From Candidatus Altiarchaeales archaeon (GTDB lineage: Archaea; Altiarchaeota; Altiarchaeia; IMC4; SCGC-AAA252-I15): a DNA stretch of 64,000 nt. Made by a program: the position numbers and the translations under genes. Below, one piece after another: positions 6,681-49,097 of this stretch. How positions within the stretch are numbered: position 1 is the first letter of the stretch; each line of letters starts with the position of its first letter. The notes below the pieces were generated by a model. It did not search any database and had not been told where the DNA came from. It saw nothing but the letters and a program-made list of their open reading frames with translations. The stretch is taken from the NCBI GenBank assembly GCA_014727915.1, contig WJMO01000011.1, positions 1 to 64,000 on the forward strand, given 5' to 3'.

Positions 6681-6685
6681 ACCAA

Positions 6686-28704: not shown

Positions 28705-28863
28705 ATGGCCTTCAGCACCAATGAGCTCCTGATAGTCCTTTTGATAATCCTGCTGCTCTTTGGGGGCAGGAAGCTCCCGGAACTGGCTCGTTCCCTGGGC
28801 CTTTCCATGAACGAATTCAAGAAGACCCAGGAAAAGCCCAAGGAGAATACTGCGGAAAAGTGA
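28705..28863 (+). CDS. tatA: Twin-arginine translocase subunit TatA
   Basis: Own translation (52 aa, not in the ORF track): MAFSTNELLIVLLIILLLFGGRKLPELARSLGLSMNEFKKTQEKPKENTAEK. Confidence 0.92.
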   Translation: MAFSTNELLIVLLIILLLFGGRKLPELARSLGLSMNEFKKTQEKPKENTAEK

Positions 28864-29558
28864 AAGCATCCCTGACAGAGCATCTTAAAGAGCTGAGACG
28901 CAGGCTGATATCTGTTTTGTCCGTGTTCGCAATCGCGGCCATCCTATCCTATCCGATCTCCCCTTCACTGCTGTCAAGGGCGAAAGCCGACCTACTCGGC
29001 GACTTAGACCTGGTTGTTTTGGGGCCTCAGGAGGCGCTTATGATATACGTGAAGGTTTCGGTGCTGCTGGGTTTCGCCTTCACCATGCCCGTGCTCACCT
29101 ATCATGTATGGGCGTTCATATCACCAGGCCTCCTAAAGAAGGAGAAGGAGTTCATCGCATACCTTGTGCTGCCTTCCGCCTTACTCTTCGCGTCCGGGCT
29201 GCTCTTCGGATACTATGCCCTACTCCCGGTGGCGTTGAAGTTCCTGATAGCCTCCGCGCAGCCCCTGGCAACCCCCATGCTGTCATTGGATCACACCTTC
29301 ACATTCATCGTGTCGATACTGTTGGCTTTGGGTGTCATATTCCAGCTTCCCCTGGTAACAGCCGCCCTAGCCAGGCTCGGCCTCCTCGATTCCCGTGCCC
29401 TGTCCAGGTACAGGAGGCATTCTATCGTAGTGATACTGCTGGTGTCTGCGATGGTCACCGACCCGAGCGTCGTGACCCAGCTCCTCCTTGCCGTGCCGAT
29501 GATAATACTGTATGAGGTCGGCATTTTTACGTCTAAACTCGCAGGTGGTAATGGATGA
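28860..29558 (+). CDS. tatC: Twin-arginine translocase subunit TatC
   Basis: LTEHLKELRRRL, WAFISPGLLKKEK, FQLP and LYEVGI motifs. Confidence 0.95.
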   Translation: MKASLTEHLKELRRRLISVLSVFAIAAILSYPISPSLLSRAKADLLGDLDLVVLGPQEALMIYVKVSVLLGFAFTMPVLTYHVWAFISPGLLKKEKEFIAYLVLPSALLFASGLLFGYYALLPVALKFLIASAQPLATPMLSLDHTFTFIVSILLALGVIFQLPLVTAALARLGLLDSRALSRYRRHSIVVILLVSAMVTDPSVVTQLLLAVPMIILYEVGIFTSKLAGGNG

Positions 29559-29701
29559 TCAGCACGCTTGAGCTAATTGTGGCTTTCATAATCTTGTTGG
29601 TGCTCTTCGGCCCTGAGCGTCTGCCTGAGATGGCACGCGAGGCTGGGAATGCTGTGAGAGAGCTTAGGGAGGCGTTTTATGGGAAGGAACTCAAGGGCTA
29701 G
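29555..29701 (+). CDS. Second TatA/TatB-family subunit (TatB-like FGPERLP)
   Basis: Own translation: MISTLELIVAFIILLVLFGPERLPEMAREAGNAVRELREAFYGKELKG. It has an ATGA overlap with tatC. Confidence 0.85.
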   Translation: MISTLELIVAFIILLVLFGPERLPEMAREAGNAVRELREAFYGKELKG

Positions 29702-30431
29702 CGTTTTATTGGCTGCTGTCCTGCTGTCGGGCTGTGTCACAAGCGACATAATGGACTCTGAATATCACCTTCCTGACAGGGCGTGCAGGTCATACGACAA
29801 CGACTGGTTCGAGAGGGGTTTCACCAGGATGCCGGCGTGCTCGATGAACGTTTACGCGTGCATGAAAGAGTGCGAGTCAAGGTCGTCTGCGGGCGAGGGC
29901 CTCTCAAGCCCTGCATGCATCATGGACGGCGTGAGATACAACAACTTCACACAACGGGATTGGGCGTGCGCGGTAGGTGACGGGAGCACATGCAGTTTAT
30001 ACCAATCAGGCGAGGCCGAGAACCTCATACTTCTGGACGAAGAATGCGATCCTGTGGATGTGACATACGACCTTGAAGTTGTTACCGCATACGCCGACGG
30101 GTCAGAGTACCGTTTCGGCGATGAATTGACGGTTACCGTGCTCAACTTGGAGCCTGAGAAGGTATGCCTGGGCTCGTGCAATACCATCTACTATCAGAGA
30201 AAGATCGGCGCCGCATGGGACGACTACATGGTAACGTGCATTGCAAACTTCATCTCTGACTGCATCGAACCCGGCGACAGCAGGGGGCTGGCTCAGACGC
30301 TGGTGAAGGTTGGCGACATGGGGGAGGGAACCTACAGGGTTGCAGTCCCAGTATACTATGGTTGTCCGGACGACGAGATGCCCTGCGAGGAGATGAAAAT
30401 AAAGTACACTGGAGAATTCAAAATAGTTTGA
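29679..30431 (+). CDS. Cys-rich putative lipoprotein with an Ig-like C-terminal domain
   Basis: Lipobox LLSGC. The C-terminus has Y.FGDELTVTV.N...IEPGDSR...GTYRV. Confidence 0.65.
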   Translation: MGRNSRASVLLAAVLLSGCVTSDIMDSEYHLPDRACRSYDNDWFERGFTRMPACSMNVYACMKECESRSSAGEGLSSPACIMDGVRYNNFTQRDWACAVGDGSTCSLYQSGEAENLILLDEECDPVDVTYDLEVVTAYADGSEYRFGDELTVTVLNLEPEKVCLGSCNTIYYQRKIGAAWDDYMVTCIANFISDCIEPGDSRGLAQTLVKVGDMGEGTYRVAVPVYYGCPDDEMPCEEMKIKYTGEFKIV

Positions 30432-30453
30432 GAAAAAACCGTTTTTTTACATA

Positions 30454-32040
30454 TTATTTGAAGCCTTCCTGGTGGAATTCCTGGGCCTGGTATGTGAGCA
30501 CCTCGCTTGTCCTCCAGCAGTTCGCAGGGCTTCCCTGCTTGAGGCAGAGGTGGCTTAGGAACTCCTCCTTGTCCGGCAGCTGCTCCCATACTACTGGCAG
30601 GTACGTGGATTGTCTCATCCCGTTCTTCAATATGACGCCGTCTACTCCGGGTATCAGCTTGGCCAGCAGGTCCTCCGGGCTGTCGTAGTGCAGCTCCTTC
30701 GGCTCCGAGAGCACGGATATCTCGATCCGCACGTCTTCCAGCTCGTCCTCTCGCACCGGCTTGAACCTGCTGTCATGCAATGCCGCATTCAAGGTGTTCT
30801 CCATCACGCACTCGTGCAGCTTCCTCATCGGCGCCAGGTGTCCGATGCACCCCCTCAGCTCGCCGTCCTTGTTCAATGTGACGAAGCAGCCTTTGACCTC
30901 ACGCAGCTTCGGGGGAAGGCTGCTGTAGTCGTACTTCATCTCTACTCCGCTGTAGTGGCTCTCCAATGCCTTTTGCGCCAGGTCCAACAGCAATTCCTGC
31001 TCTTCAGCATTCAGCCCGTCGTAGAATCCTATGGACGCATAACCTACCACGCCGTTGCTCGCGTCGCCTGACGTGTCCCCGGAGTTCCGGTAGTCGAACT
31101 TCATAGTCCTCCATCCCCTCTCATATGCCATCAGCATCAATGCCATGGTGGGTATCTTCCCGCAGCAGTCACCCTCCCGTGCCATCTTCACATAGTCCAA
31201 GCCGACTATCGCTTCTATGGTTTTCTCGTCCAGGCCCACTGCCTCGTCGTATTCGTGGTAGTGGCTGAGGTCCGTTGACGCTATTACCAGCGTGTCTTCG
31301 TCCACGTACTTTTCCAAGGCTGCCGCTAGAACTTTGGGGTCGACGTCACCGACCACTACTGGTATGAGCTTGAACGGGGGTAGAACCTTCTGGAGGAAGG
31401 GTACCTGGACTTCGACGCTGTGCTCTCTTTCATGGGCTTCGGGCTCGTAGGTGAACACGTCCTCCTCTAGCATCTCCTTTACCTTCGGCGATACTGGGAC
31501 GTCGCCTAAGGGCGTCTTGTAGAAGTCCGCGTCCGCTATGGAGGCGCCCTTTAGGTAGTGCCTGTGGCTTGGGCCCATCACTATCACGGTCTCGTACCTG
31601 CTGTTCATCAGCTGCCGGTACCCGTAGGCGGCAACCTGCCCTGAGAACCTGTAACCCGCGTGGGGTGAGATCAGACCCCGTATGCCATATACTCCGGGAT
31701 AGTCCTCGGCGTCTCCGAGGTAGCGGTCTATGTCATCTGAAAGCTTGTGGGGTTCGCTCGCATAGAAAGCCCCCGCGACCGCCGGCCTTCGGTATGTGGG
31801 GGTCAACGTCGTGGAGGTGCCGGTTATGTTGCCCCTCTCCCCGGAGATGTCCGCGGACCCTGCCTGGTTGAATATCACATATGCCATCACCGCGGTCACG
31901 ATGATGATGCCGCCAACCAGTATGGCGTCCATGACCCGGTCACCCTCTTTGCCCTTCTTTTTCTTAACCTGCCTCTCCTTGGCTTCTGTCTTCTTCCCCT
32001 TGTCCTTCTTCTTCTTCTTCCTGCTCATATGTGAACCCAT
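30454..32040 (-). CDS. Membrane-anchored AmmeMemoRadiSam protein B (MEMO1) - protein A (AMMECR1) fusion
   Basis: MEMO1 motifs RRPAVAGAFY, PHAGYRFSG, EHSVEVQVPFLQ, ASTDLSHY, NSGD and VVGYAS. AMMECR1 motifs FVTL...ELRGCIG, AALHDSRF, EISVLS, TYLPVVWEQ and LCLKQG. N-terminal Lys-rich segment followed by a TM. Confidence 0.92.
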   Translation of the reverse strand: MGSHMSRKKKKKDKGKKTEAKERQVKKKKGKEGDRVMDAILVGGIIIVTAVMAYVIFNQAGSADISGERGNITGTSTTLTPTYRRPAVAGAFYASEPHKLSDDIDRYLGDAEDYPGVYGIRGLISPHAGYRFSGQVAAYGYRQLMNSRYETVIVMGPSHRHYLKGASIADADFYKTPLGDVPVSPKVKEMLEEDVFTYEPEAHEREHSVEVQVPFLQKVLPPFKLIPVVVGDVDPKVLAAALEKYVDEDTLVIASTDLSHYHEYDEAVGLDEKTIEAIVGLDYVKMAREGDCCGKIPTMALMLMAYERGWRTMKFDYRNSGDTSGDASNGVVGYASIGFYDGLNAEEQELLLDLAQKALESHYSGVEMKYDYSSLPPKLREVKGCFVTLNKDGELRGCIGHLAPMRKLHECVMENTLNAALHDSRFKPVREDELEDVRIEISVLSEPKELHYDSPEDLLAKLIPGVDGVILKNGMRQSTYLPVVWEQLPDKEEFLSHLCLKQGSPANCWRTSEVLTYQAQEFHQEGFK

Positions 32041-32096
32041 TATTCAAACAGATATTAATATCGGGCTTTTTATAGCCTATATTGTATTTGTATTAT

Positions 32097-32540
32097 ATGC
32101 CTTCCGCCGGTGAGGTCCTGAAGAATGCTGTCATGTGGGAGGTGAAGGCATATGAATTCTACATGCGCGCGTCTGAGGAGGTTGGGAACCAGTCCTTGAA
32201 GGGGCTTCTCCTGGGCCTGGCGGGCGAGGAGCTTAAGCACAAGGAGATGATCGACCGGTTGGACGTTGGGAACATCGGCGTGAGGACTTGTGGTATAGAC
32301 TTCATAGACCTCGTAGGCGAGTTTGGATCCAACACGTATGAAATCCGCAAGTCAGCCGCCCGGGTTCTCGAGTTCGCGATGGACAAGGAGCGGAAGGCCG
32401 AGGAAAAGTACAGGCGGCTATCGCTTGAATTGGACGATCCCGAGGCCAAGAAGGTCTGTGAAGTTCTTGCGGCCGCCGAGAACTGCCACTTTAGCCTTAT
32501 AGCCGCAGAGCTCGGAAGACTACACCGGAAAAGCGTGTGA
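32097..32540 (+). CDS. Rubrerythrin/ferritin-like protein
   Basis: E..AYEFY...LAGEELKHKE and E...A...Y...LAAAENCH di-iron pattern. Confidence 0.8.
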   Translation: MPSAGEVLKNAVMWEVKAYEFYMRASEEVGNQSLKGLLLGLAGEELKHKEMIDRLDVGNIGVRTCGIDFIDLVGEFGSNTYEIRKSAARVLEFAMDKERKAEEKYRRLSLELDDPEAKKVCEVLAAAENCHFSLIAAELGRLHRKSV

Positions 32541-32625
32541 TTTCATCTTTCAACGTTCTTTTGTTTTTTAAGTTGTCATTCACTGTCTTTTCTACTTTTC
32601 GATTTCAAATTAGAGAGTGTTCAAC

Positions 32626-33912
32626 ATGAAGAATCGTTGGTTGGTTGTTATAGGAGCTTTGATAATACAGTTGTGTCTTGGAGCCATCTACAGTTGGAGC
32701 GTCTTCACCAAAGACCTCACCACCCCCTTGGCGGAGGGTGGCGTGTATGGGTTCTCCGCCTCCCAGGCTGCGTGGATATTCTCGGCGGGCCTGGCCACCT
32801 TCGCGGTGGTGATGGTGTTGGCTGGTCGCATGCAGGCCAAGATCGGGCCCAAGCCCATCGCAATGGCAGGCGGTGTCGTGTTGGGCGCGGGCTACATCCT
32901 CGGCGGACTCTTCGGCAGCTCGTTCATCAACCAGCTCCTGTTCATCGGAGTGGTCGGCGGCGCGGGCATAGGGCTAGCGTATGTGGTCCCCATCGCAGTT
33001 GGTGTGAAGTGGTTCCCTGACAAGAAGGGAATGATAACTGGACTTGCAGTTTCTGGATTCGGATTTGGAGCGACCCTATGGGTGAAGCTCGCAGGCGAAT
33101 GGGGCGGGCTGCTGGCTAACGTCAGCCTCTTCGGACTGCCCGGAGTTCAGAGCGTCTTCATCATATACGGTGTTATATTCCTGGTTTTGGTGGTTTTGGC
33201 TAGTGTTGTGATGGTTAACCCCCCAGAGGGGTATAGGCCTGCGGGTTGGGAGCCTCCCAAGGCAACAGAGGCTGCGACCGGATCTGTCGAGTTCACAAGC
33301 GGCGAGATGCTACGGACACCCCAGTTCTTCATGCTGTTCCTCGCGTTCCTAGGCTCCGCGTTGGCCGGGTTGATGGTCATCTCCTGCATCAAACTGTTCG
33401 GGATAGACGCGTTGACGGCAAGCGGGGCAGCCCCTGACGTGGCAAAAGCCGGAGCGATAGCGGGCACTGCCATGGCAATATACGCGATACTCAACGGGTT
33501 GGGAAGGATAGTCTGGGGAACTGTGTCCGACAGAATAGGGAGGAAGAACGCGCTGTTCCTCATGTGCCTACTACAGGGCGTTATAATGTTCTTCTTCTAC
33601 CGTATGGGCTCGTCTGAACTCGGCCTTATCGCTGGCGCGAGCATAATCGGCTTCAACTTCGGAGGGAACTTCGCGTTGTTCCCGGCTGCGACGGCCGACT
33701 TCTTCGGCAACAAGAACGTGGGCTCCAACTATGGCTGGGTTTTCCTCGCCTACGGTTTCGCAGGCATTGCCGGGCCTCAGATAGCGGGCTACTTCAAGGA
33801 CACGGCACAGGGCGACGTCACAGCGTGGACGAACCCGTTCATGATAGCCAGCGCGGCGTGCATAGTTGCGGCGGTCATCGTGTTGATGCTGAGGAGGCCG
33901 AGGAGCGGGTAG
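32626..33912 (+). CDS. OFA-family MFS transporter (oxalate/formate antiporter-like)
   Basis: LGAIYSWSVF, KWFPDKKG..TGLAV.GFG and NGLGRI.WG..SDRIGR motifs. Confidence 0.9.
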   Translation: MKNRWLVVIGALIIQLCLGAIYSWSVFTKDLTTPLAEGGVYGFSASQAAWIFSAGLATFAVVMVLAGRMQAKIGPKPIAMAGGVVLGAGYILGGLFGSSFINQLLFIGVVGGAGIGLAYVVPIAVGVKWFPDKKGMITGLAVSGFGFGATLWVKLAGEWGGLLANVSLFGLPGVQSVFIIYGVIFLVLVVLASVVMVNPPEGYRPAGWEPPKATEAATGSVEFTSGEMLRTPQFFMLFLAFLGSALAGLMVISCIKLFGIDALTASGAAPDVAKAGAIAGTAMAIYAILNGLGRIVWGTVSDRIGRKNALFLMCLLQGVIMFFFYRMGSSELGLIAGASIIGFNFGGNFALFPAATADFFGNKNVGSNYGWVFLAYGFAGIAGPQIAGYFKDTAQGDVTAWTNPFMIASAACIVAAVIVLMLRRPRSG

Positions 33913-33916
33913 GTTC

Positions 33917-35455
33917 TCATTCGGGGTGTGCGCCAGCAGCCTCTTTCCGGTGGACATACCCCATCGTACCCCACCACGTGTCCACAGAGCATACCAGCTC
34001 TCCACCATCGTATCCTCTGATGTCGTTGAAGGCGTAGTAGTCTCCTTCTTCTGTGGTGGTGGTATCTATCCTCTTCCTGTCTTCGGGGGGCAGGGAGTCT
34101 ACTCCATACTCGCCGACCCACCTGAAAGTGCGAACCCTTATCCTGTCCCGGCCGTCCAGTTCGAGGATCCTCTCATAGGATTCCCGGTATGACAGTCCCC
34201 AGTAGTCGAGGGGGAAACTGTCCTGTGTTTCTCCGAAGAGGCCCGCGGCGAAGTTGAAGTAGGCCATCTCATACGGGTGGTTCGCGGCCATGGTATAGGC
34301 GGTGCAGAGCGAGCTTGCGGTTATGAGCAGAGCCACTGCTGCCGATCTTCCGCGCCGGCCATCCGCCCACACTTTCACCTGCCTCAACCCTTCCATGGAT
34401 ATCATCATGAACGCGGGGTAGACGAGATAATGGTGGCGCCAGCCGTTGTATAATGTGACCTTGAATATCATCGTGGAGGCCAGGGGTATGATGAGCCATA
34501 GCAGGAAAACAAGGGTGTTCCGCTTCTCCCTGCTCCATCCCCTCTCAGTCAGATGGCGGGCTGCCGCTCCCAAACCCGCTGTGAAGAGGATGATGTACAG
34601 TGGTGGTGTGGTGATTAGCATCCATGCCGGCGTGTAATGCCATGGGGGCATCGCGTCCCTTATAGTCTCTCCGAAGTAGAGGTATGTGAAAGGGTAGAAC
34701 AGGTCTTTGGCGGAGGCGAAGCTGGAAACGAACCCTCCGACGGGATCGTCCCAGATCATCGGCCAGAACATGTACGCGAGCAGTAGCGTCATAACAGCAT
34801 ATGCTACTCCTGCCTTCCGCCCGCTCTTCCCGTATGCTAGGGTCAATGCAAGTGTCAGGACGGGTATGGCGGCTCCGAAGTTGCGGATGCCTATCAACAC
34901 CGCAGAGGACACTGAGTGGGTCAGCGCCCATTTGATGTCCCTCTCGTCCAGGAACCTTAGCATGGTGTATGCGCATGCCGTGAACATGGTCATCGTGGGT
35001 ATGTCAACGGAGTTGTAGAATCCGTGGGCGAATATCCTGGGCGTCAACACGATGAACAACGAACCTGCCAGGGCGATCTTAGGGCTTTTGAAGTGGTAGT
35101 TGCATAGGATGTAGAAGAACAGAATCCCTGTCCAATATGACATGAAGGTCAGGAGGTGCCTGAGGTACGTCACATCCCTGGTGTCTTCGACCCCTGCCGA
35201 TTTCTCGGCGGCTGCCAGCGTCAGCTCGAAAAGGGGGCCGTGTATCATGCAGTGGCTTTGGTCGAGGAAGGGGTCATATTCTCCCTCCATGATTAGGTTG
35301 TACACTGCAGTTCCGAATCGGCGGTTGTTCCTCTGATCCCAGTGGGTGCCGTAGTCCGTGTAGGTGGTCAGGCCCAGTAGGAGCAGGAGGGCGAAGAATA
35401 GGACGCTCAATTTCTTCCAGCCGCCTTTGCCGATCCCCGGGATGGGATGTTCCAT
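33917..35455 (-). CDS. GT-C fold membrane glycosyltransferase (PMT/ArnT, GT39-like)
   Basis: Multi-TM protein with DYGTHWDQ, PRIFAHGFYNSVD, PWHY, YNGWRH and DYWG motifs. Confidence 0.75.
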   Translation of the reverse strand: MEHPIPGIGKGGWKKLSVLFFALLLLLGLTTYTDYGTHWDQRNNRRFGTAVYNLIMEGEYDPFLDQSHCMIHGPLFELTLAAAEKSAGVEDTRDVTYLRHLLTFMSYWTGILFFYILCNYHFKSPKIALAGSLFIVLTPRIFAHGFYNSVDIPTMTMFTACAYTMLRFLDERDIKWALTHSVSSAVLIGIRNFGAAIPVLTLALTLAYGKSGRKAGVAYAVMTLLLAYMFWPMIWDDPVGGFVSSFASAKDLFYPFTYLYFGETIRDAMPPWHYTPAWMLITTPPLYIILFTAGLGAAARHLTERGWSREKRNTLVFLLWLIIPLASTMIFKVTLYNGWRHHYLVYPAFMMISMEGLRQVKVWADGRRGRSAAVALLITASSLCTAYTMAANHPYEMAYFNFAAGLFGETQDSFPLDYWGLSYRESYERILELDGRDRIRVRTFRWVGEYGVDSLPPEDRKRIDTTTTEEGDYYAFNDIRGYDGGELVCSVDTWWGTMGYVHRKEAAGAHPE

Positions 35456-35535
35456 TCCGTTAGATTAAATGGTTTTCTAAAGTATAATACCCCGGCCTTG
35501 CATCGCTTTTTTACCGGTATTTTTAAGTGAATAAC

Positions 35536-36282
35536 ATGGTGGATGTGGTCGTAGTGATGGGCGTTGGCTTGATAGTCCTGTTGTCATACTTCCTCAGGAC
35601 GTTGACAGGGTTTGGGAGCGCTCTCATCGCCATGCCCTTCCTGGTCCTGTTGTTCTCGGACCTCCGGTTCGTAGTCCCGTTGTTCGCGGCCATCGAATTG
35701 TTGAACGGGTATCTCAACTACAGGGGCTCCGCGGCCAGGGCTAAGTTCTCGGATTACAAGGCCACCTTCAGCATGGTATTTGTCGGCACCGTTATCGGAT
35801 GTCTGCTGTTGAGGTTCGCTCCAGAGAACGTCCTCCGGTTCTTCTTTGCATTGTTCCTGCTGGCATTCGCAGTCAAGTTGTATTTTGGCTCCGGTTTCAA
35901 GCTGCCCGGCTATGGGCTTGTGGACGTGGGTTTCTATCCTCTCATCGGGGGTTTGTTGTTCGGCGTCTACAACACCGGCCGTCCGGTCGTTCTGAGCTGG
36001 CTGTCCAAGAGGCCGCTTGAGAAGCCATTGACGGAGGAATCGCTCGCTTCGCTGTTCTTCTTCAAGAGCGTTTTCCAGGTGGCGTTGTTCATCGTCCTGG
36101 GCCTGCTGGGCTTCAGCGTGCTGGCATATCTGATATTGGCTGTTCCGATGCTGTTGCTGGCCAGGTTCCTGGCTGCGTCGACGCCCAATCACCTGGACGA
36201 CCGCATGGTTTCAGGTGGTGCGTCGGCGGTGTTCGCCGCGGTGGCCTTGCTGATAGTCTTCATGCTGGTCGCGCAGGGGTGA
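35536..36282 (+). CDS. TauE/SafE (TSUP) sulfite-exporter-family protein
   Basis: TGFGSALIAMP and a multi-TM layout with GGLLFGVYNTGRP. Confidence 0.75.
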   Translation: MVDVVVVMGVGLIVLLSYFLRTLTGFGSALIAMPFLVLLFSDLRFVVPLFAAIELLNGYLNYRGSAARAKFSDYKATFSMVFVGTVIGCLLLRFAPENVLRFFFALFLLAFAVKLYFGSGFKLPGYGLVDVGFYPLIGGLLFGVYNTGRPVVLSWLSKRPLEKPLTEESLASLFFFKSVFQVALFIVLGLLGFSVLAYLILAVPMLLLARFLAASTPNHLDDRMVSGGASAVFAAVALLIVFMLVAQG

Positions 36283-37177
36283 GCCAGTCATCGTAGCCTC
36301 TTTCTTCTCCCCTGACTATGCTCAGGTACTTGGACTGTATCCTCTCGGTTACCTGGCCTCTGCCGCCGTATTCCCTGTCGTCTATCTGGCGTATCGGGGT
36401 TACTTCGGCGGCGGTGCCTGTGAAGAAGGCCTCATCCGCGTCCTTTAGCTCCTCGACCGTTATCTCTCCCTCTTTGACCTCGTATCCGATGTCTGACGCG
36501 ATCTTCCTGACAGTATCCTGTGTTATGCCCGGCAGAGCACCCGAATCCTCTGATGTCGTCTTCAAGACCTCGTCTTTGACAGTGAACAAGTTCTCACCCG
36601 AACCCTCGGCTACACTGCCTTTGGTGTTGAGCATGATGGCCTCGTCAAATCCTCTCCTGACGGCTTCGACCTTTGCCAGCGACGCGTTCGCATAGTTGGC
36701 GGTTGCCTTGGCTGTGGGCGGCATCGTCGACGGGTCTATCCTCCTCCACGTCGAGATGGTGGCTTTAACGCCCTTCTCCATCCCGTCCTCGCCAAGGTAT
36801 GCCCCCCACTCCCAGACCGCGTGGCTGACGTCAACCGGGTTGCCCAGGGGGCAGACTCCCAATTCCCTGTAGCCGAAGAACGCTATGGTCCTGACATAGC
36901 ATTCCCTCAGGTTGTTTGCTCTTATGGTCTCAATGACCTGGGCGCATAGTTCATCAACCGTGTATGGGAGTTCCATGTTGTAGGCTGCGCCGCTCTTCAC
37001 AAGCCTTCTCATGTGGTCCTTCAGCCTGAACACCGCCGGGCCCTCGCATGTGTCATAGCACCTGCAGCTCTCGAAGACTCCCGTCCCATAGTGGAGTGCA
37101 TGGGCTAGGACGTGGACTTTAGCTTCCTCCCACGCTGCCAGCTCTCCGTTGTACATGACCTTTTCAGTCGCTTTCAT
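36260..37177 (-). CDS. ilvE: Branched-chain amino acid aminotransferase
   Basis: HALHYGTGVFES, FRLKDHMRRL, AKATANY, EGSGENLF, LPGIT and EAFFTGTAAEVTPI motifs. Confidence 0.96.
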   Translation of the reverse strand: MKATEKVMYNGELAAWEEAKVHVLAHALHYGTGVFESCRCYDTCEGPAVFRLKDHMRRLVKSGAAYNMELPYTVDELCAQVIETIRANNLRECYVRTIAFFGYRELGVCPLGNPVDVSHAVWEWGAYLGEDGMEKGVKATISTWRRIDPSTMPPTAKATANYANASLAKVEAVRRGFDEAIMLNTKGSVAEGSGENLFTVKDEVLKTTSEDSGALPGITQDTVRKIASDIGYEVKEGEITVEELKDADEAFFTGTAAEVTPIRQIDDREYGGRGQVTERIQSKYLSIVRGEERGYDDWLTPARPA

Positions 37178-37234
37178 ATGGGGAAAGATGTGAACCCCAG
37201 GTTAAATAGGCCGGAAAATGAATATTTTACTGTT

Positions 37235-37579
37235 ATGGGATGGTTTGACTGGCTGTTCTCCCCCGAGGACGGGGAAAAGGAGGTTTGGGTGAAGGTCTGC
37301 CCCATGTGCGGGAGCAAGGAGGTCACGAGCAGGGGCATGATATCCCGGCGTGCGCTGTCTCCCAACTTCATCTGCAAGTCATGCGGGTTCCAAAGCCCTC
37401 TCTTCCCCGAGCTGCCGTTGGAAGAGGCGGGGAAGATCCCCGACCAACCGAGCGTTTTAGTGCCTTCCAGGGCGCCGATCGCAGCGGACCACAGCCGATT
37501 GGATGATGGCATGGGCCGCGGCAGGATATTCTGGCTCATGTTAGTGGCGTTGGTCCTGTGGCTGATACTCGCATACTGA
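37235..37579 (+). CDS. Small zinc-ribbon protein with C-terminal TM
   Basis: CPMCGS...CKSCGF and a hydrophobic C-terminus. Confidence 0.65.
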   Translation: MGWFDWLFSPEDGEKEVWVKVCPMCGSKEVTSRGMISRRALSPNFICKSCGFQSPLFPELPLEEAGKIPDQPSVLVPSRAPIAADHSRLDDGMGRGRIFWLMLVALVLWLILAY

Positions 37580-37585
37580 CGGGTT

Positions 37586-38776
37586 TCACATCCAAACTCC
37601 CGCGATCGCTTCCCCGCAGAACCTGCAATTCCCATCTTGGAGGTTGTTCTCCGTTATCCTGTATCCTGCCCTGCCTATGACGGTCCTACCGCATCGGGGG
37701 CAGATGGTGTCTTCCAGTTGTAGTTGGGGTGCGTTGCCGACGAAAACGTAGTTCAATCCCGCGTCAGATGCGATGTCCCTTGCGTTGGTGAGGACTTCAA
37801 GGGGTGTTGGCGGTAGCTTTGTCAGCTTGTACTGGGGGTGGAACCTGCTGAAATGGAGGGGGTAGTCGCCTCCGATGTTCTTGACGATCCATCTGCTCAT
37901 CTCCCCTATGACGTCTAGGTCGTCGGTCCAGGTTGGCACGATGAGGTTGGTGATCTCGAACCATATCCTGTTCTCGTGCAGGGTCTTCAGGGTTTTCAAT
38001 ACCGGCTGTAGGCTGCCGCCGTTCAACTCCAGGTAAATGTTGTCTCTGAACCCTTTCAAGTCGACGTTCGCAGCGTCCAAGACCGTGCAGAACCTCTCAA
38101 GCGGCTCCTCGTTCATGTGTCCGTTGGTTATCCACAGGTTCCTCACTCCCTCCTCCCTCGCTATCACGCTCGTGTCGTACATGTACTCGTAGAATATGGT
38201 GGGCTCGTTGTAGGTGTATGCTATCGACTTGCACCCCTGCTGCAAGGCTCCTGCGACGACGGCATCGGGGAAGAGCTCCCCGTTTTCGGTCTCCTCCGGG
38301 GGATACTGGCTTATCTCCCAGTTCTGGCAGTTCAAACACCTGAGGTTGCACCCTGCCGTCGCTATGCTGAAGGCCTTGGACGCCGGCAGGAAATGGAATA
38401 GGGGCTTCTTCTCTATGGGGTCCACGTGGACCGAGCAGGGGTTCCCGTAGACGAGAGAATAGAGTCTGCCGCCGTGGTTCACCCTAACCCTGCATATGCC
38501 CCTCTGGCCAGGCTGTAGGCTGCAGGTGTTGGGGCATAGGCCGCACCGCACCGTCCCACCCAGGTCCCGGTAATCGTATGCTTCCCTGCTCCACTTCCAC
38601 AGCTCAGAGGGGGCGGCGGTCACCTCCGAACCGCCGTTGGGTCTGCTTTCCGGCTTCCCCTTCGACAGCTCGTTGACGATGTATCCTCCAGCACCCAATC
38701 CCACGGCTCCGACGGCCGCCTTCTTGAGGAATTCCCTCCTGCTTATGCCCTCGCTCCTATCATCCCTACTTGCCAC
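37586..38776 (-). CDS. AmmeMemoRadiSam radical SAM enzyme with N-terminal twin-arginine signal
   Basis: SRREFLK plus hydrophobic h-region, CGLCPNTC...GICRVR, DPIEKKPLFHF, CNLRCLNCQNWEIS (CxxxCxxC), YTYNEP, PLHFSRFHP and C-terminal CxxC motifs. Confidence 0.93.
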   Translation of the reverse strand: MASRDDRSEGISRREFLKKAAVGAVGLGAGGYIVNELSKGKPESRPNGGSEVTAAPSELWKWSREAYDYRDLGGTVRCGLCPNTCSLQPGQRGICRVRVNHGGRLYSLVYGNPCSVHVDPIEKKPLFHFLPASKAFSIATAGCNLRCLNCQNWEISQYPPEETENGELFPDAVVAGALQQGCKSIAYTYNEPTIFYEYMYDTSVIAREEGVRNLWITNGHMNEEPLERFCTVLDAANVDLKGFRDNIYLELNGGSLQPVLKTLKTLHENRIWFEITNLIVPTWTDDLDVIGEMSRWIVKNIGGDYPLHFSRFHPQYKLTKLPPTPLEVLTNARDIASDAGLNYVFVGNAPQLQLEDTICPRCGRTVIGRAGYRITENNLQDGNCRFCGEAIAGVWM

Positions 38777-40886
38777 TTGTTAGCCTCAGATACCCTAAAA
38801 CGTTCACTGCGCAGACAAGCGCGCAGACGGTTAATATTCCCACTGCGGGTATTAAAAAGACGCTGACCAGCATGCACCCTATGAATGCGCCGAGGAAGTC
38901 GAGGCTGTAGAGTGTTCCCGCGGTCTCCCCTGGCGTTTGCTGCCCTTTATTCGCCCTCGCCGCCAGGGGGAAAACCGACCCCACTATCGACCCCAACGCG
39001 GCTGTAATCAAGGGGAAGATTACCTGTGCGGAGAACTGTGCCATCGGCGCGGCCTTCACGGTGTTCAACGACATGATGACGGCTGCCAGGACCAGCGGAT
39101 AGGCTGTGGCGGCTGCTATCATCCGCGTCAGGCGTCTTCTTTCCCCTCCCAGTTTCCTGTTGGCCCTATGGGCTCCCCACGCCAGCCCTACCATGAAAGA
39201 CGTCACTATCAAACCCACCTGGTGGTATACGAACCCGTAAAGTGCCTGGAATGAGATTAGCAGCACAACCTCCAAGGCGGTGCCTGTGAACCCGACACCC
39301 ATTATGTTAGCTTTCAACGGCTCCAGCCTGAAGTACAATATGGCGGCTGCCAACCCGAAAGCGACGGCAAAGTGGGGCAGGTATCCTCTCATGTTGAAGT
39401 AGGTCATCCAATACCTGAGGTGGTGGTAGTATGCCGTAGGCTTAAGGTCCCGGTTTAATTCTCCGCCTGAGGCGATGTTCTCCTCCAGGTAGCTGATCCT
39501 CTCGTCGTTGAGCGTTCCAACCAGGTAGTTCTCGTTCACATAGTGTGTTTCAACCCCTGAATCCCCTACCAAACGCCCTATGCCCGTCTCCAAACCCGAA
39601 TCCGACGCGAGGTATATGTTCCTCCCTCCTGGTAGTGCGAGGACTTCGGCGAATGCCTCAGTTAGCGTCGCGTATACGCCCGCGTTCAACATCCTCACCT
39701 CCTCGTTCATGTAGTTCTCCGACCCGCTAACTCCCGTTGAGAACACGCCTCCAGGGCTCAATATCCTCTTCACTTCACTGTAGAACTCGAGGGTGTAGAA
39801 CCTGTTCAACTGGGCTGTGGTGGGGTCTGGCAGGTCCACGATGACTACATCGTACATGATGGGTGAGGTTTTGACGTAGATCCTCCCGTCCATGTTGTGC
39901 ACGTTCACCCGCGGGTCTTCAACCCCGGTTTCTCCAAGGTACTCCCTCGCTAATCTTATTATCTCCGGGTCTAGTTCGACGTAGTCGACCTGGCTGACGT
40001 CATACTTCAGTATCTCCTTCAACGTGCCCGAGACCCCTCCGGAGATCAGGAGCACGTTGTCTGCCTTGTCCCGCTGGGACATTGGGTAGTGGACAGTCTC
40101 CTCGGCTGATACCACGTCGCCGGTGCTGAACAATGGCAGGTTGTTCTCGTAGAAGTTCACCTGCCCTGACGATTCGGAAACGACGAGGTTCCCATAGCGT
40201 GTGTTCACCTGCTCCAGAACATGCTCGCCCTGGAACCTGATGCTGTCCGTCACGTCCTGGAGGTCGACCGCGAACGCGAATGACACTATCATAAGGCAGA
40301 TAATTGCAGACCCTATCCTCCACCGTCCCCCGATAGAGTAAAGTCCCGCCGCTGACGCGAGCCCTGCCACATAGGCTGTCTGGAAGGAGTCCAGCAGGTT
40401 CACCAGGAGGAAGGTGAACGCGAGCCCTCCGAGTATGTCACCGGCGGAGTCGAGGATGTAGCCCCATCCTATTCCCTCGGCCTTCCGGTCTTCCGCGATT
40501 ATCGCGCATACCAGCGTGATCTGGACGCCGTAGAGCATGCAGTAGGGGCCGAGTGTCAGAGCAAGCGAACCCAGGATATGGGCCAGGCCTGCCATCTCAC
40601 CCCTGACGGTGAGGACGGAGTCAACGGTGTTGGAGACGTAGACTGAAGCCGGGATCAGGAGGGCGCCGAATGCCAGAGTAAATGCGAACGCGGTCCTGGA
40701 GTCCTTTACTTTCACCTTGGCTGCGGTGTGGCTGCCGAGCCCGACCAGTGCCATCCATGCTCCGAGGGCGAGGCCGAAGACGAGCTCGTTCCCGTAGAAG
40801 ATGTTGAGGAACTCCCTGAGGAATGTGAGCTGGGCGACCATGGACGCAAAGCCTATCATAACCGCGGCAAAACCGTATTTGGACAT
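38766..40886 (-). CDS. Membrane-fused spermidine-synthase-like (SAM-binding) protein
   Basis: TM bundle, then EETVHYPM, VLLISGG, YVELDPEII, DGR and YDVVIVDLPDP...NRFYTLEFY, then a second TM bundle. Confidence 0.85.
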   Translation of the reverse strand: MSKYGFAAVMIGFASMVAQLTFLREFLNIFYGNELVFGLALGAWMALVGLGSHTAAKVKVKDSRTAFAFTLAFGALLIPASVYVSNTVDSVLTVRGEMAGLAHILGSLALTLGPYCMLYGVQITLVCAIIAEDRKAEGIGWGYILDSAGDILGGLAFTFLLVNLLDSFQTAYVAGLASAAGLYSIGGRWRIGSAIICLMIVSFAFAVDLQDVTDSIRFQGEHVLEQVNTRYGNLVVSESSGQVNFYENNLPLFSTGDVVSAEETVHYPMSQRDKADNVLLISGGVSGTLKEILKYDVSQVDYVELDPEIIRLAREYLGETGVEDPRVNVHNMDGRIYVKTSPIMYDVVIVDLPDPTTAQLNRFYTLEFYSEVKRILSPGGVFSTGVSGSENYMNEEVRMLNAGVYATLTEAFAEVLALPGGRNIYLASDSGLETGIGRLVGDSGVETHYVNENYLVGTLNDERISYLEENIASGGELNRDLKPTAYYHHLRYWMTYFNMRGYLPHFAVAFGLAAAILYFRLEPLKANIMGVGFTGTALEVVLLISFQALYGFVYHQVGLIVTSFMVGLAWGAHRANRKLGGERRRLTRMIAAATAYPLVLAAVIMSLNTVKAAPMAQFSAQVIFPLITAALGSIVGSVFPLAARANKGQQTPGETAGTLYSLDFLGAFIGCMLVSVFLIPAVGILTVCALVCAVNVLGYLRLTSGK

Positions 40887-42801: not shown

Positions 42802-44042
42802 AGTTAACGCTGCCATACGGTGATTCGACAACGGAGATTGAGGTTGACGATGACCGGGTGCAGGCTTACATCGAGCCGGCCCACTTCGACAAGCGGGACT
42901 TGAAGGATCTTTTACGGGAGTCTTTGGAGGACTCATACGCCCTGAGCCTTGAGGAATTCCTAAAGGGCAAGAAGTCCATACTGTTGGTTGTGAACGACCT
43001 GACCCGCCCCACACCCACTGCGAAGGTGTTGGAGGTTCTCCTGCCCTTGTTGGGTGACAGGGAGTTGAAGTTCATCATCGCCACCGGCTCTCATAAGCCG
43101 CCGGGTAAGCCGGGGTTGAAGACCATACTCGGCGAAGGCGTCTACGAGGCTCATAAGAAGGAGGTTTACAGCCACGAGGCCAAGGACGACGTGTTCCTAA
43201 GGTATGCGGGGGAGACCTCGCGGGGTAACAGCATCTACTTGAACAAGATGCTATGGCTCGTGGACGGGGTAATAAACATCAACAGCGTGGAGCCCCATTA
43301 TTTCGCGGGTTTCACCGGCGGCCGGAAGAGTTTTCTACCGGGTGTGTCCAGTTATAAGACGATCACCAAGAACCATTCGTTCGCTTTGGAGGAGGGGAGC
43401 CAGCTGTGCAACCTGGAGGGGAACCCCGTTAACGAGGACATGGAGGAGGCCGCCGCATTGGTCCCCAAGCCGATCTTCAGCTTCAACCTGGTGTTGGACG
43501 CGGACAACGACGTGGCCGGCGTTTTCGCTGGCGGGTTGAGGGAGTCTTTCCGGGCGGCCTGCGAGTTCACCCTCACAAAATACACGTTCTCGTTGGAGGA
43601 GAAGGCGGATGTTGTGCTGGCTTTTGTGGAGCGGCCGATGAGCAGGGACCTCTACCAGACTCAGAAGGTCATCGAGCCCTCGAAGCTCGCGTTGAAGGAG
43701 GGGGGTGTTCTCATCTTCGTCTCTCAGTGTGACGGGGGCGTGGGCCCTGAAAACTACTATGCGCTGATGAGCTCGTCCACGAACCCTCATGAGATATTGA
43801 TGAGCATACAGCAGAAGTACAAGCTCGGCTACCACAAAGCCGCCCGCCTGTTGGAAATCGCCACCTGGGCGGACATGTACGCGGTAACCGACCTGGAAGA
43901 CCATGTCCTAGAGCGCGTCTTCATGAAACCCTTCAGCACCGCTCAGGAAGCAGTCGACACCGCACTCAAAGAAAAAGGCCCCCAAGCCAAAATAATCATA
44001 ATCAAAAACGCACTCATCACAATACCACAAAACAAAGCTTAG
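42798..44042 (+). CDS. larA: Nickel-pincer-dependent lactate-racemase-family protein
   Basis: NDLTRPTPT, ATGSH, EPHYFAGFTGGRKSFLPG, DLYQTQK and LGYHKA motifs. Confidence 0.88.
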   Translation: MKLTLPYGDSTTEIEVDDDRVQAYIEPAHFDKRDLKDLLRESLEDSYALSLEEFLKGKKSILLVVNDLTRPTPTAKVLEVLLPLLGDRELKFIIATGSHKPPGKPGLKTILGEGVYEAHKKEVYSHEAKDDVFLRYAGETSRGNSIYLNKMLWLVDGVININSVEPHYFAGFTGGRKSFLPGVSSYKTITKNHSFALEEGSQLCNLEGNPVNEDMEEAAALVPKPIFSFNLVLDADNDVAGVFAGGLRESFRAACEFTLTKYTFSLEEKADVVLAFVERPMSRDLYQTQKVIEPSKLALKEGGVLIFVSQCDGGVGPENYYALMSSSTNPHEILMSIQQKYKLGYHKAARLLEIATWADMYAVTDLEDHVLERVFMKPFSTAQEAVDTALKEKGPQAKIIIIKNALITIPQNKA

Positions 44043-44076
44043 GTCTCTGGATTTTTGAATTTCAGGTGAAATAGTA

Positions 44077-45243
44077 GTGGGGCTGTCAGGGACGGCGTGT
44101 TCTCTGGGGGTAAACCATTTTAAGATCACTGTGGATGGTAGTTCTCTTAAGGTTGAGGGTTGCGGTCAATCGGTCGAATCAACGGATTCCTCCTACTCCA
44201 ACACGGGGGAGATTTCGCTCCAAAACCATTATGGGACTTCCTCCTCCTTCGACAACATAACCGTGAGGAAATACGCCAACCCTACACCAACCTTTAATGG
44301 ATTCCACACCGAAGAAACCTACACTCCAAGCCCACCCCTGGGCGGCAGCGGAGAAATATACTATTATCACCCTGACCATCTTGGTTCAACTGTTGTGGTT
44401 AGTGACAGTGACGGTAATTTAGAAGAGAGAATTTCATATCAGCCGTTTGGCCTACCCCGTCAATCCAGTGAAGAATTGTACCAGTTCACTAGTCAGGAGT
44501 GGGAGGGAGACCTTGGATTCTATGACTACGGAGCTCGTCAGTATAATCCGACCCTTAGGAGGTTCATGCAAGCTGATAGTATAATACCAAATCCTTATAA
44601 TCCGCAAAACATGAACAGATACTCGTATGTACTGAATAATCCACTCATATATATTGATCCTACTGGTCATGTAGGCTTTATAGTTGGTTTAACGGGTCAG
44701 TCAGGTACATATCCTGTTGGAGTAGGTGATAGTATTACAGAAACACAAGGTTTTGCAGTTGCTATATCTTCTGATCTTAAAATAAGTTGGGGTTCTGTTA
44801 AAAGTGCTGGTGTGGGGGATATTACTCCTACTGGATCTGCAGGTTTATTATTATTACGATCAGATGGTGTAGAACATGTTAGTGGATTCTCTGGTTCCTC
44901 AACAGATGTTATGGGTGATACGAGTTTAATGCCTGGAACCAGTGTTGGATTAATTGGTGTTACCAATGAAGATGGTGAATGTTCTGGAACTGGCATGACA
45001 GTTTCATTAGACATTAATGCTCCTGCAGGGATATTTGGAGCTTCAGCGGGGGTTGTTAATTCTGAAACAATAGTTACTGAACATACAAATAATGGAGATA
45101 TAACACATGGTGATACCCAAGCTTATAATAATATATATTCGGAGGTCGCAAATGATTATTTAAGTGAAGCAGATGTTGCTGGGACACTTGAACGTTTAAC
45201 AGAAACTGCCAATACTATAATACAAAAAATCACGGGAGAATAA
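44077..45243 (+). CDS. 5'-truncated Rhs protein: short beta-domain remnant + RHS core + variable C-terminal (putative toxin) domain 1
   Basis: YYYHPDHLGS, YQFTSQEW, FYDYGARQYNP...RFMQAD, NRYSYVLNNP..YIDPTG, then a Gly/Ser-rich CT. Confidence 0.88.
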   Translation: MGLSGTACSLGVNHFKITVDGSSLKVEGCGQSVESTDSSYSNTGEISLQNHYGTSSSFDNITVRKYANPTPTFNGFHTEETYTPSPPLGGSGEIYYYHPDHLGSTVVVSDSDGNLEERISYQPFGLPRQSSEELYQFTSQEWEGDLGFYDYGARQYNPTLRRFMQADSIIPNPYNPQNMNRYSYVLNNPLIYIDPTGHVGFIVGLTGQSGTYPVGVGDSITETQGFAVAISSDLKISWGSVKSAGVGDITPTGSAGLLLLRSDGVEHVSGFSGSSTDVMGDTSLMPGTSVGLIGVTNEDGECSGTGMTVSLDINAPAGIFGASAGVVNSETIVTEHTNNGDITHGDTQAYNNIYSEVANDYLSEADVAGTLERLTETANTIIQKITGE

Positions 45244-45253
45244 CAAGAAGACA

Positions 45254-45919: not shown

Positions 45920-45970
45920 TATGGCATAACTCTTATCAATTGTGTCAGTTTATTTCACCGGAGTTGGGGT

Positions 45971-46678: not shown

Positions 46679-46699
46679 TTAATTAACTAAGGTGGGGAT

Positions 46700-47035
46700 A
46701 TGGAACAAATAATCGAAAAAATATTTTACATATTAATCTCAATAGGTGCTCTAATTTTGGTTTATGCTCCTATGTTTTATAAAGAAAAACTCGCGAAATA
46801 TCTGAAAAACAATAAATTAGATATCTATAAATCTTTACCTTCAGATCAATCTTTTCCTTATATTCTTGAGAGTGATAAGATCGGTTGGATCTCATTTATA
46901 AAATATATCTTTTCGAAACACCCACAAGATGACAAAACATGCCTTAAATACAAAAGAATAATTATCTTTTCATGGATTGGAATAATCCTTCTATTTTGTT
47001 CTATTCTCTACCTATTATATGCTGGGTTTATATGA
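46700..47035 (+). CDS. Two-TM small protein, putative immunity protein 2
   Basis: SD-like aaggtgggg, a TM-loop-TM layout, AT-rich, and follows CT2. Confidence 0.75.
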   Translation: MEQIIEKIFYILISIGALILVYAPMFYKEKLAKYLKNNKLDIYKSLPSDQSFPYILESDKIGWISFIKYIFSKHPQDDKTCLKYKRIIIFSWIGIILLFCSILYLLYAGFI

Positions 47036-47044
47036 TTTCGTTCC

Positions 47045-47926: not shown

Positions 47927-47965
47927 AAAGAAATTAGTTAATATGATATTAAATGAATATGATAT

Positions 47966-49093: not shown

Positions 49094-49097
49094 AAAC

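Follow-up and report, generated by a model that had tools for sequence, protein, structure and literature searches.

Radical S-adenosylmethionine (SAM) enzymes, which number in the hundreds of thousands, are regarded as strictly cytoplasmic, since their activity depends on SAM, on an electron donor of low potential and on shielding from oxygen. One of them belongs to the AmmeMemoRadiSam system, in its canonical form a cytoplasmic system covered by the families TIGR04335, TIGR04336 and TIGR04337, together with MEMO1 and AMMECR1, two proteins that are conserved up to humans and linked to disease, and for which we know of no established biochemical function. The locus described here lies in a stretch of 64,000 nucleotides (the window) from an archaeon of the Candidatus Altiarchaeales (GenBank assembly GCA_014727915.1, contig WJMO01000011.1, positions 1 to 64,000 of the forward strand). 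It encodes a radical SAM enzyme with a twin-arginine translocation (Tat) signal, a fusion of MEMO1 and AMMECR1 with an N-terminal membrane anchor (the B-A fusion), and a 14-helix membrane protein with an inserted domain resembling spermidine synthase (SpeE). These proteins probably represent an exported variant of the AmmeMemoRadiSam system, built from three conserved components and placed outside the cytoplasm.

The resemblance to the canonical system is close, in that all three families are recognized above their curated cut-offs with invariant cysteine motifs, and fusions of protein A with protein B, or of A and B with the radical SAM enzyme, are also found among the relatives. The differences are that every component at this locus carries a signal for export or outward anchoring, and that a protein joining a part like the major facilitator superfamily (MFS) to a SpeE-like domain is a regular partner. 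Proposals on AMMECR1 favour RNA base modification, as far as the available parts of PMC2034487 and PMC4075521 go. For an exported variant of the system such a function would be excluded. Work of Burroughs et al. in 2019 on the gene contexts of Memo is said to add isoprenoid modification to the proposals.

Among the Fe-S proteins exported through Tat are the Rieske protein, the small subunits of hydrogenases and the NapG-type ferredoxins. They share with the enzyme of the window a twin-arginine signal on a protein that would fold and bind its Fe-S clusters before crossing the membrane, and the signal of one of its relatives (P0046) matches the Rieske TAT-signal family PF10399; those proteins are electron carriers, whereas the window protein is a radical SAM enzyme. 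In the literature searched no Tat-exported or periplasmic radical SAM enzyme was described (the study of Burroughs et al., outside that search, may note secreted forms), nor was there a link between AMMECR1 and spermidine synthase or an MFS/SpeE-like partner of a radical SAM enzyme; the available parts of PMC10924467 and PMC13128918 hold nothing on exported radical SAM enzymes.

The nearest characterised relatives of the radical SAM enzyme are the activating enzymes of pyruvate formate-lyase (PFL-AE) and of other glycyl-radical enzymes, which provide the only solved structures matched (3c8f and 8fo0, E about 4e-8). Its scores fall far below those of the corresponding families (TIGR02493, 45.9 bits versus a cut-off of 231.75; TIGR02494, 29.2 versus 174.35), and it differs from PFL-AE also by additional N- and C-terminal four-cysteine motifs and by the lack of a glycyl-radical enzyme partner. 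The membrane protein shares the whole SpeE fold with SpeE and its membrane-fused forms (PRK03612; NF037959, 'fused MFS/spermidine synthase') and passes PF01564 and NF037959. It differs in having the SpeE-like domain as an insert between two halves of 7 helices each, in the outward orientation predicted for this domain and in scores below the equivalog cut-offs.

The three proteins and their relation to the membrane

The genes of the three components, all on the minus strand, and the segments discussed below are the following:
37586..38776, minus strand: AmmeMemoRadiSam radical SAM enzyme, 396 residues; TIGR04337, 367.4 bits (cut-off 220)
38657..38776, minus strand: Tat signal peptide region of the radical SAM enzyme, residues 1-40, with SRREFLK, 15 uncharged residues and a basic c-region
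30454..32040, minus strand: AmmeMemoRadiSam protein B-A fusion (MEMO1 + AMMECR1), 528 residues; TIGR04336, 245.5 bits (cut-off 26), and TIGR04335, 193 bits (cut-off 99)
31870..32040, minus strand: basic tail and signal-anchor helix of the B-A fusion, with 17 lysines or arginines in residues 1-38 and the helix at residues 39-57
38766..40886, minus strand: 14-helix MFS-like membrane protein with inserted SpeE-like domain, 706 residues; PF01564 (Spermine_synth), 99.5 bits, and NF037959, 61.2 bits (cut-off 40)
39387..40268, minus strand: SpeE-like soluble domain, residues 207-500 of the membrane protein, with the SpeE fold, an outward orientation and docking on the radical SAM enzyme being predicted

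The radical SAM enzyme starts at a GTG codon, with a Shine-Dalgarno-like GAGG 8-11 nucleotides upstream, and its N-terminus combines S12-R-R-E-F-L-K18 with 15 uncharged residues (A20-N34) and a subsequent basic stretch. The features of a Tat substrate, namely the twin-arginine consensus, an uncharged h-region and the N-terminal position, are all present, and the TAT-signal model TIGR01409 recognizes residues 11-31 with 24.5 bits (cut-off 16.7, E 2.4e-5). Conservation of this segment was followed in the 120 closest relatives (55-71% identical, mostly from DPANN, Altiarchaeota, Methanofastidiosia and Theionarchaea), a set that includes P0001, the database gene call for the window enzyme itself, which likewise begins upstream of the RR motif. 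A motif of the [ST]RRxF[IL]K type is found within the first 60 residues of 116 of the 120, and with the stricter demand for a motif plus a hydrophobic stretch the relatives divide into 114 with RR, 3 with KR or RK and 3 with none, bearing out the canonical Tat motif and h-region of the original prediction. The cysteines of three motifs, C143/C147/C150 (CX3CX2C), C78/C81/C85/C95 and C359/C362/C384/C387, are invariant in 32 aligned relatives. A wider sample was drawn from 1.84 billion proteins clustered at 50% identity, the best 150 cluster representatives being taken; here the N-termini were RR in 34, KR or RK in 6, another hydrophobic segment in 7 and none in 103, so that Tat-type enzymes form a large and diverse subfamily beside the ordinary cytoplasmic one.

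Three further features of this family were observed. Automatic annotation marks a TAT signal on some relatives (PF10518 on P0037 and P0109). KREF[LI]K replaces RREF[LI]K in 22 of the gene neighbourhoods considered in the next section, nearly all from Bacteroidota, as a Lys-Arg form of the twin-arginine motif common to that lineage (L002, L003, L005, L007, L011, L013, L014, L017, L019, L022, L024-L026, L029, L030, L032, L036, L038-L041 and L046). Many relatives, among them the closest of the long ones (at 59-62% identity), carry near the cluster-binding motif inteins with a LAGLIDADG endonuclease (P0391-P0395, P0399, P0441, P0442, P0452, P0465, P0282, P0331, P0340 and P0344).

In the B-A fusion the Memo (PF01875, residues 86-337) and AMMECR1 (PF01871, residues 353-522) domains follow the basic tail, the single helix, an N71-I72-T73 sequon and a Thr-rich linker, in agreement with the poly-Lys N-terminus, one transmembrane segment, NIT sequon and Thr linker originally proposed. 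There are 17 lysines or arginines before the helix versus 1 in the 15 residues after it, and the topology is predicted to be N-in/C-out with both domains outside. A strongly hydrophobic segment is present within the first 110 residues of 103 of the 120 closest relatives, mostly with a positively charged N-flank, and takes the form of N-in/C-out anchors, of classical Sec signal peptides or of lipoboxes (the last for instance in P0153, P0155, P0159, P0171, P0172 and P0189); the rest of the 120 are mostly truncated records or start at the Memo domain. By analogy with these relatives, the earlier placement of the catalytic domains outside by the positive-inside rule gains support. Across 89 relatives the linker holds N-x-S/T sequons at about threefold the density of the remaining protein (1.12 versus 0.39 per 100 residues), and at least one linker sequon is found in 20 of these 89.

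The third component had been noticed as the product of an overlapping gene, a membrane SAM-binding protein. The overlap is real, the radical SAM gene covering 11 nucleotides at the stop of the 706-residue protein's gene, to which it is translationally coupled, and the relation to spermidine synthases holds (PF01564); what has to be revised is its status, since it is a conserved third component and not a mere neighbour. An AlphaFold2 model built with 38 relatives (pLDDT 92.1, pTM 0.91) consists of 7 helices, the soluble domain (about residues 209-500) and 7 more helices, and in Foldseek the soluble domain matches solved spermidine synthases over the full length of the latter (E 1e-12, TM-score 0.70-0.76). 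Counted as family means, the lysines and arginines of the short loops amount in the N-terminal half to 8.9 in loops 0, 2, 4 and 6 versus 2.2 in loops 1, 3 and 5, and in the C-terminal half to 8.5 in loops 8, 10, 12 and 14 versus 0.8 in loops 9, 11 and 13. Modelled alone, the N-terminal half resembles MFS half-domains (FLVCR2, G6PT, NorA and POT transporters), a weak likeness with a best E of 0.05 and TM-scores up to 0.62. In the 6+6 core of the MFS both termini and the central loop are cytoplasmic; a further helix at either side of the insert converts this into the 7+7 pattern and would therefore bring the SpeE-like domain to the outer face. The model, the loop charges and the MFS likeness are thus three concordant, if indirect, lines in predicting that this domain faces outward.

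The SpeE-like domain stays below all SpeE equivalog cut-offs (TIGR00417, 92.3 versus 249.55; PRK00811, 117 versus 260; PRK03612, 181.1 versus 472). Its nucleoside-binding positions are kept among the 38 relatives (E291 in 36, E304 in 34, D333 in 37 and D346 in all 38), E304 and D333 being the acidic residues that bind ribose and adenine. At position 351, in the DxxDP segment that we take to carry the catalytic aspartate, the window protein has Asp, and Asn, Ser or Leu is found in 29 of the 38 relatives (N in 19, S in 5, L in 5, D in 3). Moreover, the Gly-rich loop reads SGGVSG, without the Asp of GGGDGG, which presumably serves to keep out SAM in favour of decarboxylated SAM. Because the equivalog cut-offs are missed, the nucleoside-binding residues kept, position 351 seldom Asp among the relatives and the Asp of the Gly-rich loop missing, the domain is treated here as an adenosyl- or SAM-binding module rather than as an aminopropyltransferase.

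Modelling of the complex had been suggested as a check and was done for the SpeE-like domain (residues 207-500) with the mature radical SAM enzyme (residues 58-396), in one complex prediction with a separate alignment for each partner. The model reached an ipSAE of 0.85, versus 0.00 for the best of three controls; among solved complexes 116 of 157 attain this mark, and among mismatched pairs 2 of 215, a calibration that is rough only, own alignments having been used here. Three runs share at least 94% of the contacts, and the pLDDT of the partner is at least 94. In the model, loop 389-397 of the SpeE-like domain, which includes N391 and Y392 (the latter almost invariant, conserved in 35 of 38 relatives), touches residues 114-115, 152-155 and 189 of the radical SAM enzyme, which flank CX3CX2C (143-150) and the family-invariant DPIEKKPL segment. 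We know of no solved complex of SpeE with a radical SAM enzyme that could have been memorised, the PDB relatives of the enzyme being PFL-activating enzymes only. As a prediction, the model supports binding between the two proteins and, if it is right, two adenosyl-dependent sites would face each other. Fusions of SpeE with the radical SAM enzyme were found neither among the 150 representatives nor among 120 long relatives.

Gene neighbourhoods and domain fusions in other genomes

A scan of the species representatives in GTDB around radical SAM genes gave at least 80 loci; the counts of loci given here and in the following sections refer to the 80 among the matches listed. By inspection, the N-terminus of the radical SAM enzyme is of the RR-Tat type in 32, of the KREF[LI]K variant in 22, another anchor or signal in 7, without signal in 18 and cut by a contig end in 1. 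A gene for B/A is present in 49 loci, five of which were left out because the N-terminus of B/A (L015, L035, L041 and L053) or the radical SAM enzyme (L045) is cut. In the 44 complete loci, both proteins have a signal in 32, the radical SAM enzyme only in none, B/A only in 5 and neither in 7, an association with a Fisher value of 2e-5, uncorrected for relatedness. All 25 B-A N-termini inspected from loci of the first kind are textbook Sec signal peptides or lipoboxes.

A homologue of the SpeE-like gene is found in 45 of the 80 loci, often between the B-A and radical SAM genes, and accompanies 42 of 61 signal-bearing versus 3 of 18 signal-less radical SAM genes (Fisher 1e-4). In Desulfobacterales, Bacteroidales, Verrucomicrobiia and others, the genes follow each other on one strand in the order B-A, SpeE-like membrane protein, Tat-type radical SAM enzyme, often with overlapping ends. 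The co-occurrence that had been proposed for a survey is thus seen for the signals of the two enzymes and for the SpeE-like gene; the linkage to tat genes turned out to be rare in bacteria, as discussed below. Two of the three signal-less loci with a SpeE-like gene (L061 and L069) are frameshift-split fusions of a NosR-like protein, a transmembrane segment and the radical SAM enzyme. Inspection of these two (L061:428-2997 and L069:8404-10963) shows that the C-terminus of the NosR-like open reading frame (ORF) holds the start of the radical SAM enzyme (...ARYW... and ...AKYW..., respectively), which resumes in another frame, an arrangement that corresponds to split fusions or to assembly errors.

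Clustering of the 1788 ORFs near the 80 radical SAM genes gave no conserved family beyond the three core ones. The other recurrent neighbours are a sigma-54 activator (15 loci) and a NosR-like gene, which in 6 loci lies immediately upstream of the radical SAM gene; a synteny block confined to Bacteroidales contains SiaC-like, LigA, DUF6913 and DHDPS genes, and several other clusters consist of antisense ORFs. In a FastTree phylogeny of the radical SAM domain from 79 loci and the window (the truncated L027 was left out), the nearest relative of the window enzyme is archaeal, namely that of L001 from Aenigmatarchaeota (support 95). The gene for TatC lies within the fetched stretch in 3 of the 80 loci, each time directly adjoining the system: L028 (Altiarchaeota) has the order tatC-tatA-radical SAM-B-A with 4-nucleotide spacing, and in L001 and L021 (Omnitrophota) tatC is divergent from the SpeE-like gene. 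Among signal-bearing archaeal loci the linkage holds in 2 of 2 (L001 and L028), or in 3 of 3 when the window is counted.

Longer relatives (120 proteins; the fusion relatives are 46-55% identical over the radical SAM domain) suggest how electrons might be supplied. FMN_bind and NapH-like Fer4_5 domains are joined to the radical SAM enzyme in 9 of the 120; P0250 and P0255 consist of a transmembrane segment, FMN_bind and the radical SAM domain, with no helix between the last two, and DsbD_2 precedes the enzyme in P0241 and P0244 and forms with it a DsbD_2-FMN_bind-Fer4_5-radical SAM protein in P0248. These architectures can be likened to the NapH-like/NosR-like and DsbD-type electron-transfer systems with ApbE-flavinylated FMN_bind domains that are treated in the available part of PMC8238504, from the fusion of radical SAM relatives to FMN_bind, Fer4_5 (PF12801) and DsbD_2; the window differs in having no such module. 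According to the same part of that source, which makes no mention of radical SAM, AMMECR1 or Memo, the FMN_bind domains of NapH-like proteins are extracytosolic. By analogy, it is plausible that in bacteria a covalently flavinylated domain replaces flavodoxin as the electron donor. Fusions of the radical SAM enzyme with CBM11/CIA30 (3 of 120) and with beta-propellers (2 of 120), modules of envelope type, hint at a glycan-associated substrate in some lineages.

Tat genes and other neighbours in the window

The genes that precede the B-A fusion are on the opposite strand:
28705..28863, plus strand: tatA, 52 residues, pore subunit of the Tat translocase; TIGR01411, 57.9 bits (cut-off 53.9)
28860..29558, plus strand: tatC, 232 residues, Tat signal receptor; PF00902, 191.4 bits, and TIGR00945, 186 bits (cut-off 132.7)
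29555..29701, plus strand: second TatA-family gene, 48 residues; TIGR01411, 45.7 bits, and TIGR01410 (TatB), 39.0 bits, neither of which reaches its cut-off
29679..30431, plus strand: Cys-rich lipoprotein, 250 residues, with the lipobox LLSGC; its start overlaps the second tatA by 23 nucleotides

Tat machinery is therefore present in this genome, tatA and tatC (which overlap by 4 nucleotides) both scoring above cut-off at 28705-29558. The position of the tat genes within 1 kb of the fusion gene, as had been stated, is correct: the 3' end of the B-A gene, which is convergent with the lipoprotein gene, lies 752 nucleotides from the end of the second tatA. The label 'tatB-like' for 29555-29701 was dropped in view of its 39.0 bits with TIGR01410; a product below both the TatA and the TatB cut-offs does not establish a TatB, and it is called here a second TatA paralogue. 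A crude Tat-motif scan of the other ORFs of the window, blind to GTG starts, gave a single match, a false one internal to the SpeE-like protein.

The Cys-rich lipoprotein matches no family of Pfam or NCBIfam and lacks homologues in the 80 loci, and its membership in the system is doubtful. Six unrelated genes separate the B-A gene from the radical SAM gene, encoding a rubrerythrin-like protein, a lactate-type MFS transporter, a 512-residue membrane protein, TauE, IlvE and a Zn-ribbon protein, and beyond the SpeE-like gene the opposite strand encodes CDP-archaeol synthase (CarS), an FAD oxidoreductase and LarA. As parts of the system, the lipoprotein, rubrerythrin-like, TauE, IlvE, Zn-ribbon, CarS, FAD oxidoreductase and LarA genes were rejected, homologues being found in 0 of 80 loci, and so were the lactate-type MFS transporter and the 512-residue membrane protein, each with a homologue in 1 of 80. 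A relaxed Pfam scan of the unassigned window proteins gave for the 512-residue protein a weak hint of PMT_2 (E 0.022) and otherwise zinc-ribbon noise.

The B-A gene and the rubrerythrin/ferritin-like gene (32082-32540; PF02915, 41 bits) are divergent and 41 nucleotides apart (32041-32081), and probably share a promoter region. The longest ORF of CarS, which opens with the GTG at position 40728, shares 159 nucleotides (40728-40886) with the 5' end of the SpeE-like gene on the opposite strand; as the CarS domain starts at residue 71, the real start is probably more downstream.

Elsewhere in the window, a region of low G+C content (44000-49200; 0.36-0.44 versus 0.54-0.60 around it) may be a foreign insert, and carries on one strand seven ORFs of 110-388 residues (44077-45243, 45254-45919, 46028-46678, 46700-47035, 47111-47926, 47966-48298 and 48740-49093), none of which has a Pfam match. 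Very large ORFs (320-15330 and 55411-62669; 1999, 1704, 1156, 1645 and 799 residues) probably encode surface proteins, with MopE-type metal-binding motifs and beta-propeller/PQQ-like, FG-GAP, CARDB, CBM96 and disaggregatase repeats; two of them are without any Pfam match. NurA is also encoded in the window and, like CarS, indicates an archaeal origin; an Rfam scan of the whole window gave no match.

Site of catalysis and significance

Comparison with relatives supports the earlier proposal of an AmmeMemoRadiSam system outside the cytoplasmic membrane, and the following sequence of events may be envisaged. The radical SAM enzyme would fold and acquire its Fe-S clusters in the cytoplasm and then cross through TatA/TatC by means of its SRREFLK signal, which is perhaps kept uncleaved as an anchor. 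The MEMO1-AMMECR1 fusion would insert N-in/C-out, leaving its two domains outside, and the 706-residue protein, an MFS-type 6+1/1+6 helix bundle, would display its SpeE-like adenosyl-binding domain on the outer face, where it would dock at the face by which substrate enters the radical SAM enzyme. Jointly the three proteins would modify a lipid or glycan belonging to the outer leaflet or to the envelope, in that the radical SAM enzyme would take a hydrogen and the metal-dependent Memo and Cys-bearing AMMECR1 domains would finish the chemistry; roles in lipid or glycan modification or in salvage are guesses. Delivery of SAM through the MFS/SpeE-like protein, a candidate SAM exporter and hand-off module, is a speculative part of this proposal and on balance doubtful. 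Equally tentative is the full picture of a radical SAM enzyme that turns over outside the cytoplasm with its own supply line, the MFS-like half exporting SAM (or the substrate), the SpeE-like domain handing the cofactor to the docked enzyme, and electrons in bacteria arriving through FMN_bind/NapH-like or DsbD-like conduits.

Several observations weigh against an external location. The topologies were derived from hydropathy, the positive-inside rule and AlphaFold2. In the window the B-A gene is 5.5 kb away from the radical SAM and SpeE-like genes and outside their operon, whereas the three genes are contiguous in many relatives, and neither an FMN_bind, NapH-like, DsbD or cytochrome gene nor any other electron-transfer partner was found there; we know of no source of SAM or of low-potential reductant beyond the membrane. 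Linkage to tat genes is found in just 1 of 59 signal-bearing bacterial loci (L021). The Fisher values given above overstate the evidence, because relatedness inflates them: on the tree of the radical SAM domain the signal state changes only about 6 times, and phylogenetically independent pairs comparing signal with SpeE-like gene gave 3.3 in the same direction, 0 in the opposite one and 1.7 without difference (of 5), which is the expected direction but a non-significant result (median p 0.25). In 5 of the 44 complete loci (L037, L056, L057, L063 and L079) B/A has a signal and the radical SAM enzyme none. Single polypeptides of the form signal-Memo-AMMECR1-radical SAM combine a Sec-type or lipobox signal with an intact CX3CX2C in 13 of 13 checked (P0407, P0409, P0410, P0417, P0424, P0425, P0429, P0430, P0437, P0438, P0446, P0450 and P0259); this is hard to square with loading before export, and implies either that Fe-S clusters are inserted following passage through Sec or that the signal works otherwise than expected. 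Finally, some anchored relatives, triple fusions included, are more positive after the helix than before it (P0258, for example, has 1 lysine or arginine before and 4 after), from which the domains of those relatives would be cytoplasmic.

The last three of these observations (the signal-less radical SAM enzymes beside signal-bearing B/A, the Fe-S motifs kept in Sec-led triple fusions and the charges of P0258-type relatives) could be accommodated if the N-terminal segments served only to hold the enzymes at the cytoplasmic side of the membrane, the substrate being a membrane lipid reached from inside; SAM and the low-potential reductants, reduced flavodoxin or ferredoxin, are indeed cytoplasmic. 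A tether would have no need of the precise S/T-R-R-x-F-L-K consensus, yet this is found in 116 of 120 relatives and above a curated cut-off, and the lipoboxes and cleavable Sec signals of B-A relatives imply export; together with the charge distribution around the helix of the window B-A fusion, the direct FMN_bind-radical SAM fusions and the outward position of the SpeE-like domain predicted from the positive-inside rule, they make this arrangement improbable. Alternatively, the proteins may be exported without catalysis being sustained outside: the radical SAM enzyme would act once before export (its target being, for instance, the SpeE-like protein or a different partner), pass through Tat as a single-use enzyme preloaded with SAM and a reduced cluster, or serve as a scaffold subunit. 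That Tat moves folded, cofactor-loaded proteins, that the window encodes no external supply of SAM or electrons, that the nearest characterised relatives are activating enzymes acting on proteins (TIGR02493 PFL-AE, 45.9 bits; PDB 3c8f, E 3.8e-8) and that in the model the conserved SpeE-like loop with Y392 sits at the entrance of the active site would all be in keeping with it. The cluster cysteines are, however, all invariant in the 32 aligned relatives, the nucleoside-binding residues of the SpeE-like domain are kept, and the recurrence of fusions to electron conduits that span the membrane (9 of 120 long relatives, besides those with DsbD_2) speaks for a continuing electron supply and hence for turnover, so that we give this alternative, too, a low probability.

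An annotation artefact, with the real starts downstream, the signal and anchor untranslated and the tat genes chance neighbours, is very unlikely indeed. It might be suspected from the GTG start of the radical SAM gene and the in-frame GTG and TTG codons within the h-region, from Met37 of the B-A fusion just before the helix, and from the rarity of tat linkage in bacteria. Starts downstream of the signal or of the transmembrane segment, which the original prediction named as one refutation, were not borne out: the N-terminal segments are kept as protein at 55-70% identity and, because they are so conserved in relatives, the signals are not the product of chance or gene calling. In addition, the database gene call P0001 starts before the RR, GAGG precedes the GTG, and a start at Met37 would still retain the helix. 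An extracytoplasmic system of three components remains, in our view, the probable reading of the locus.

The AmmeMemoRadiSam family evidently spans cytoplasmic, membrane-tethered and exported forms, and a membrane- or envelope-bound substrate may be their common thread. The clade of radical SAM enzymes with export signals is widespread, in archaea of the DPANN and Altiarchaeota as well as in bacteria of the Desulfobacterales, Bacteroidales, Omnitrophota and Verrucomicrobiia, and the three-gene cassette represents a compact system that is present in culturable anaerobes. If the proposed location is true, radical chemistry would reach the cell envelope, raising the matter of how SAM and electrons are delivered across membranes, and the chemistry of MEMO1 and AMMECR1 would have a lipid or glycan of the envelope, rather than RNA, as its target.

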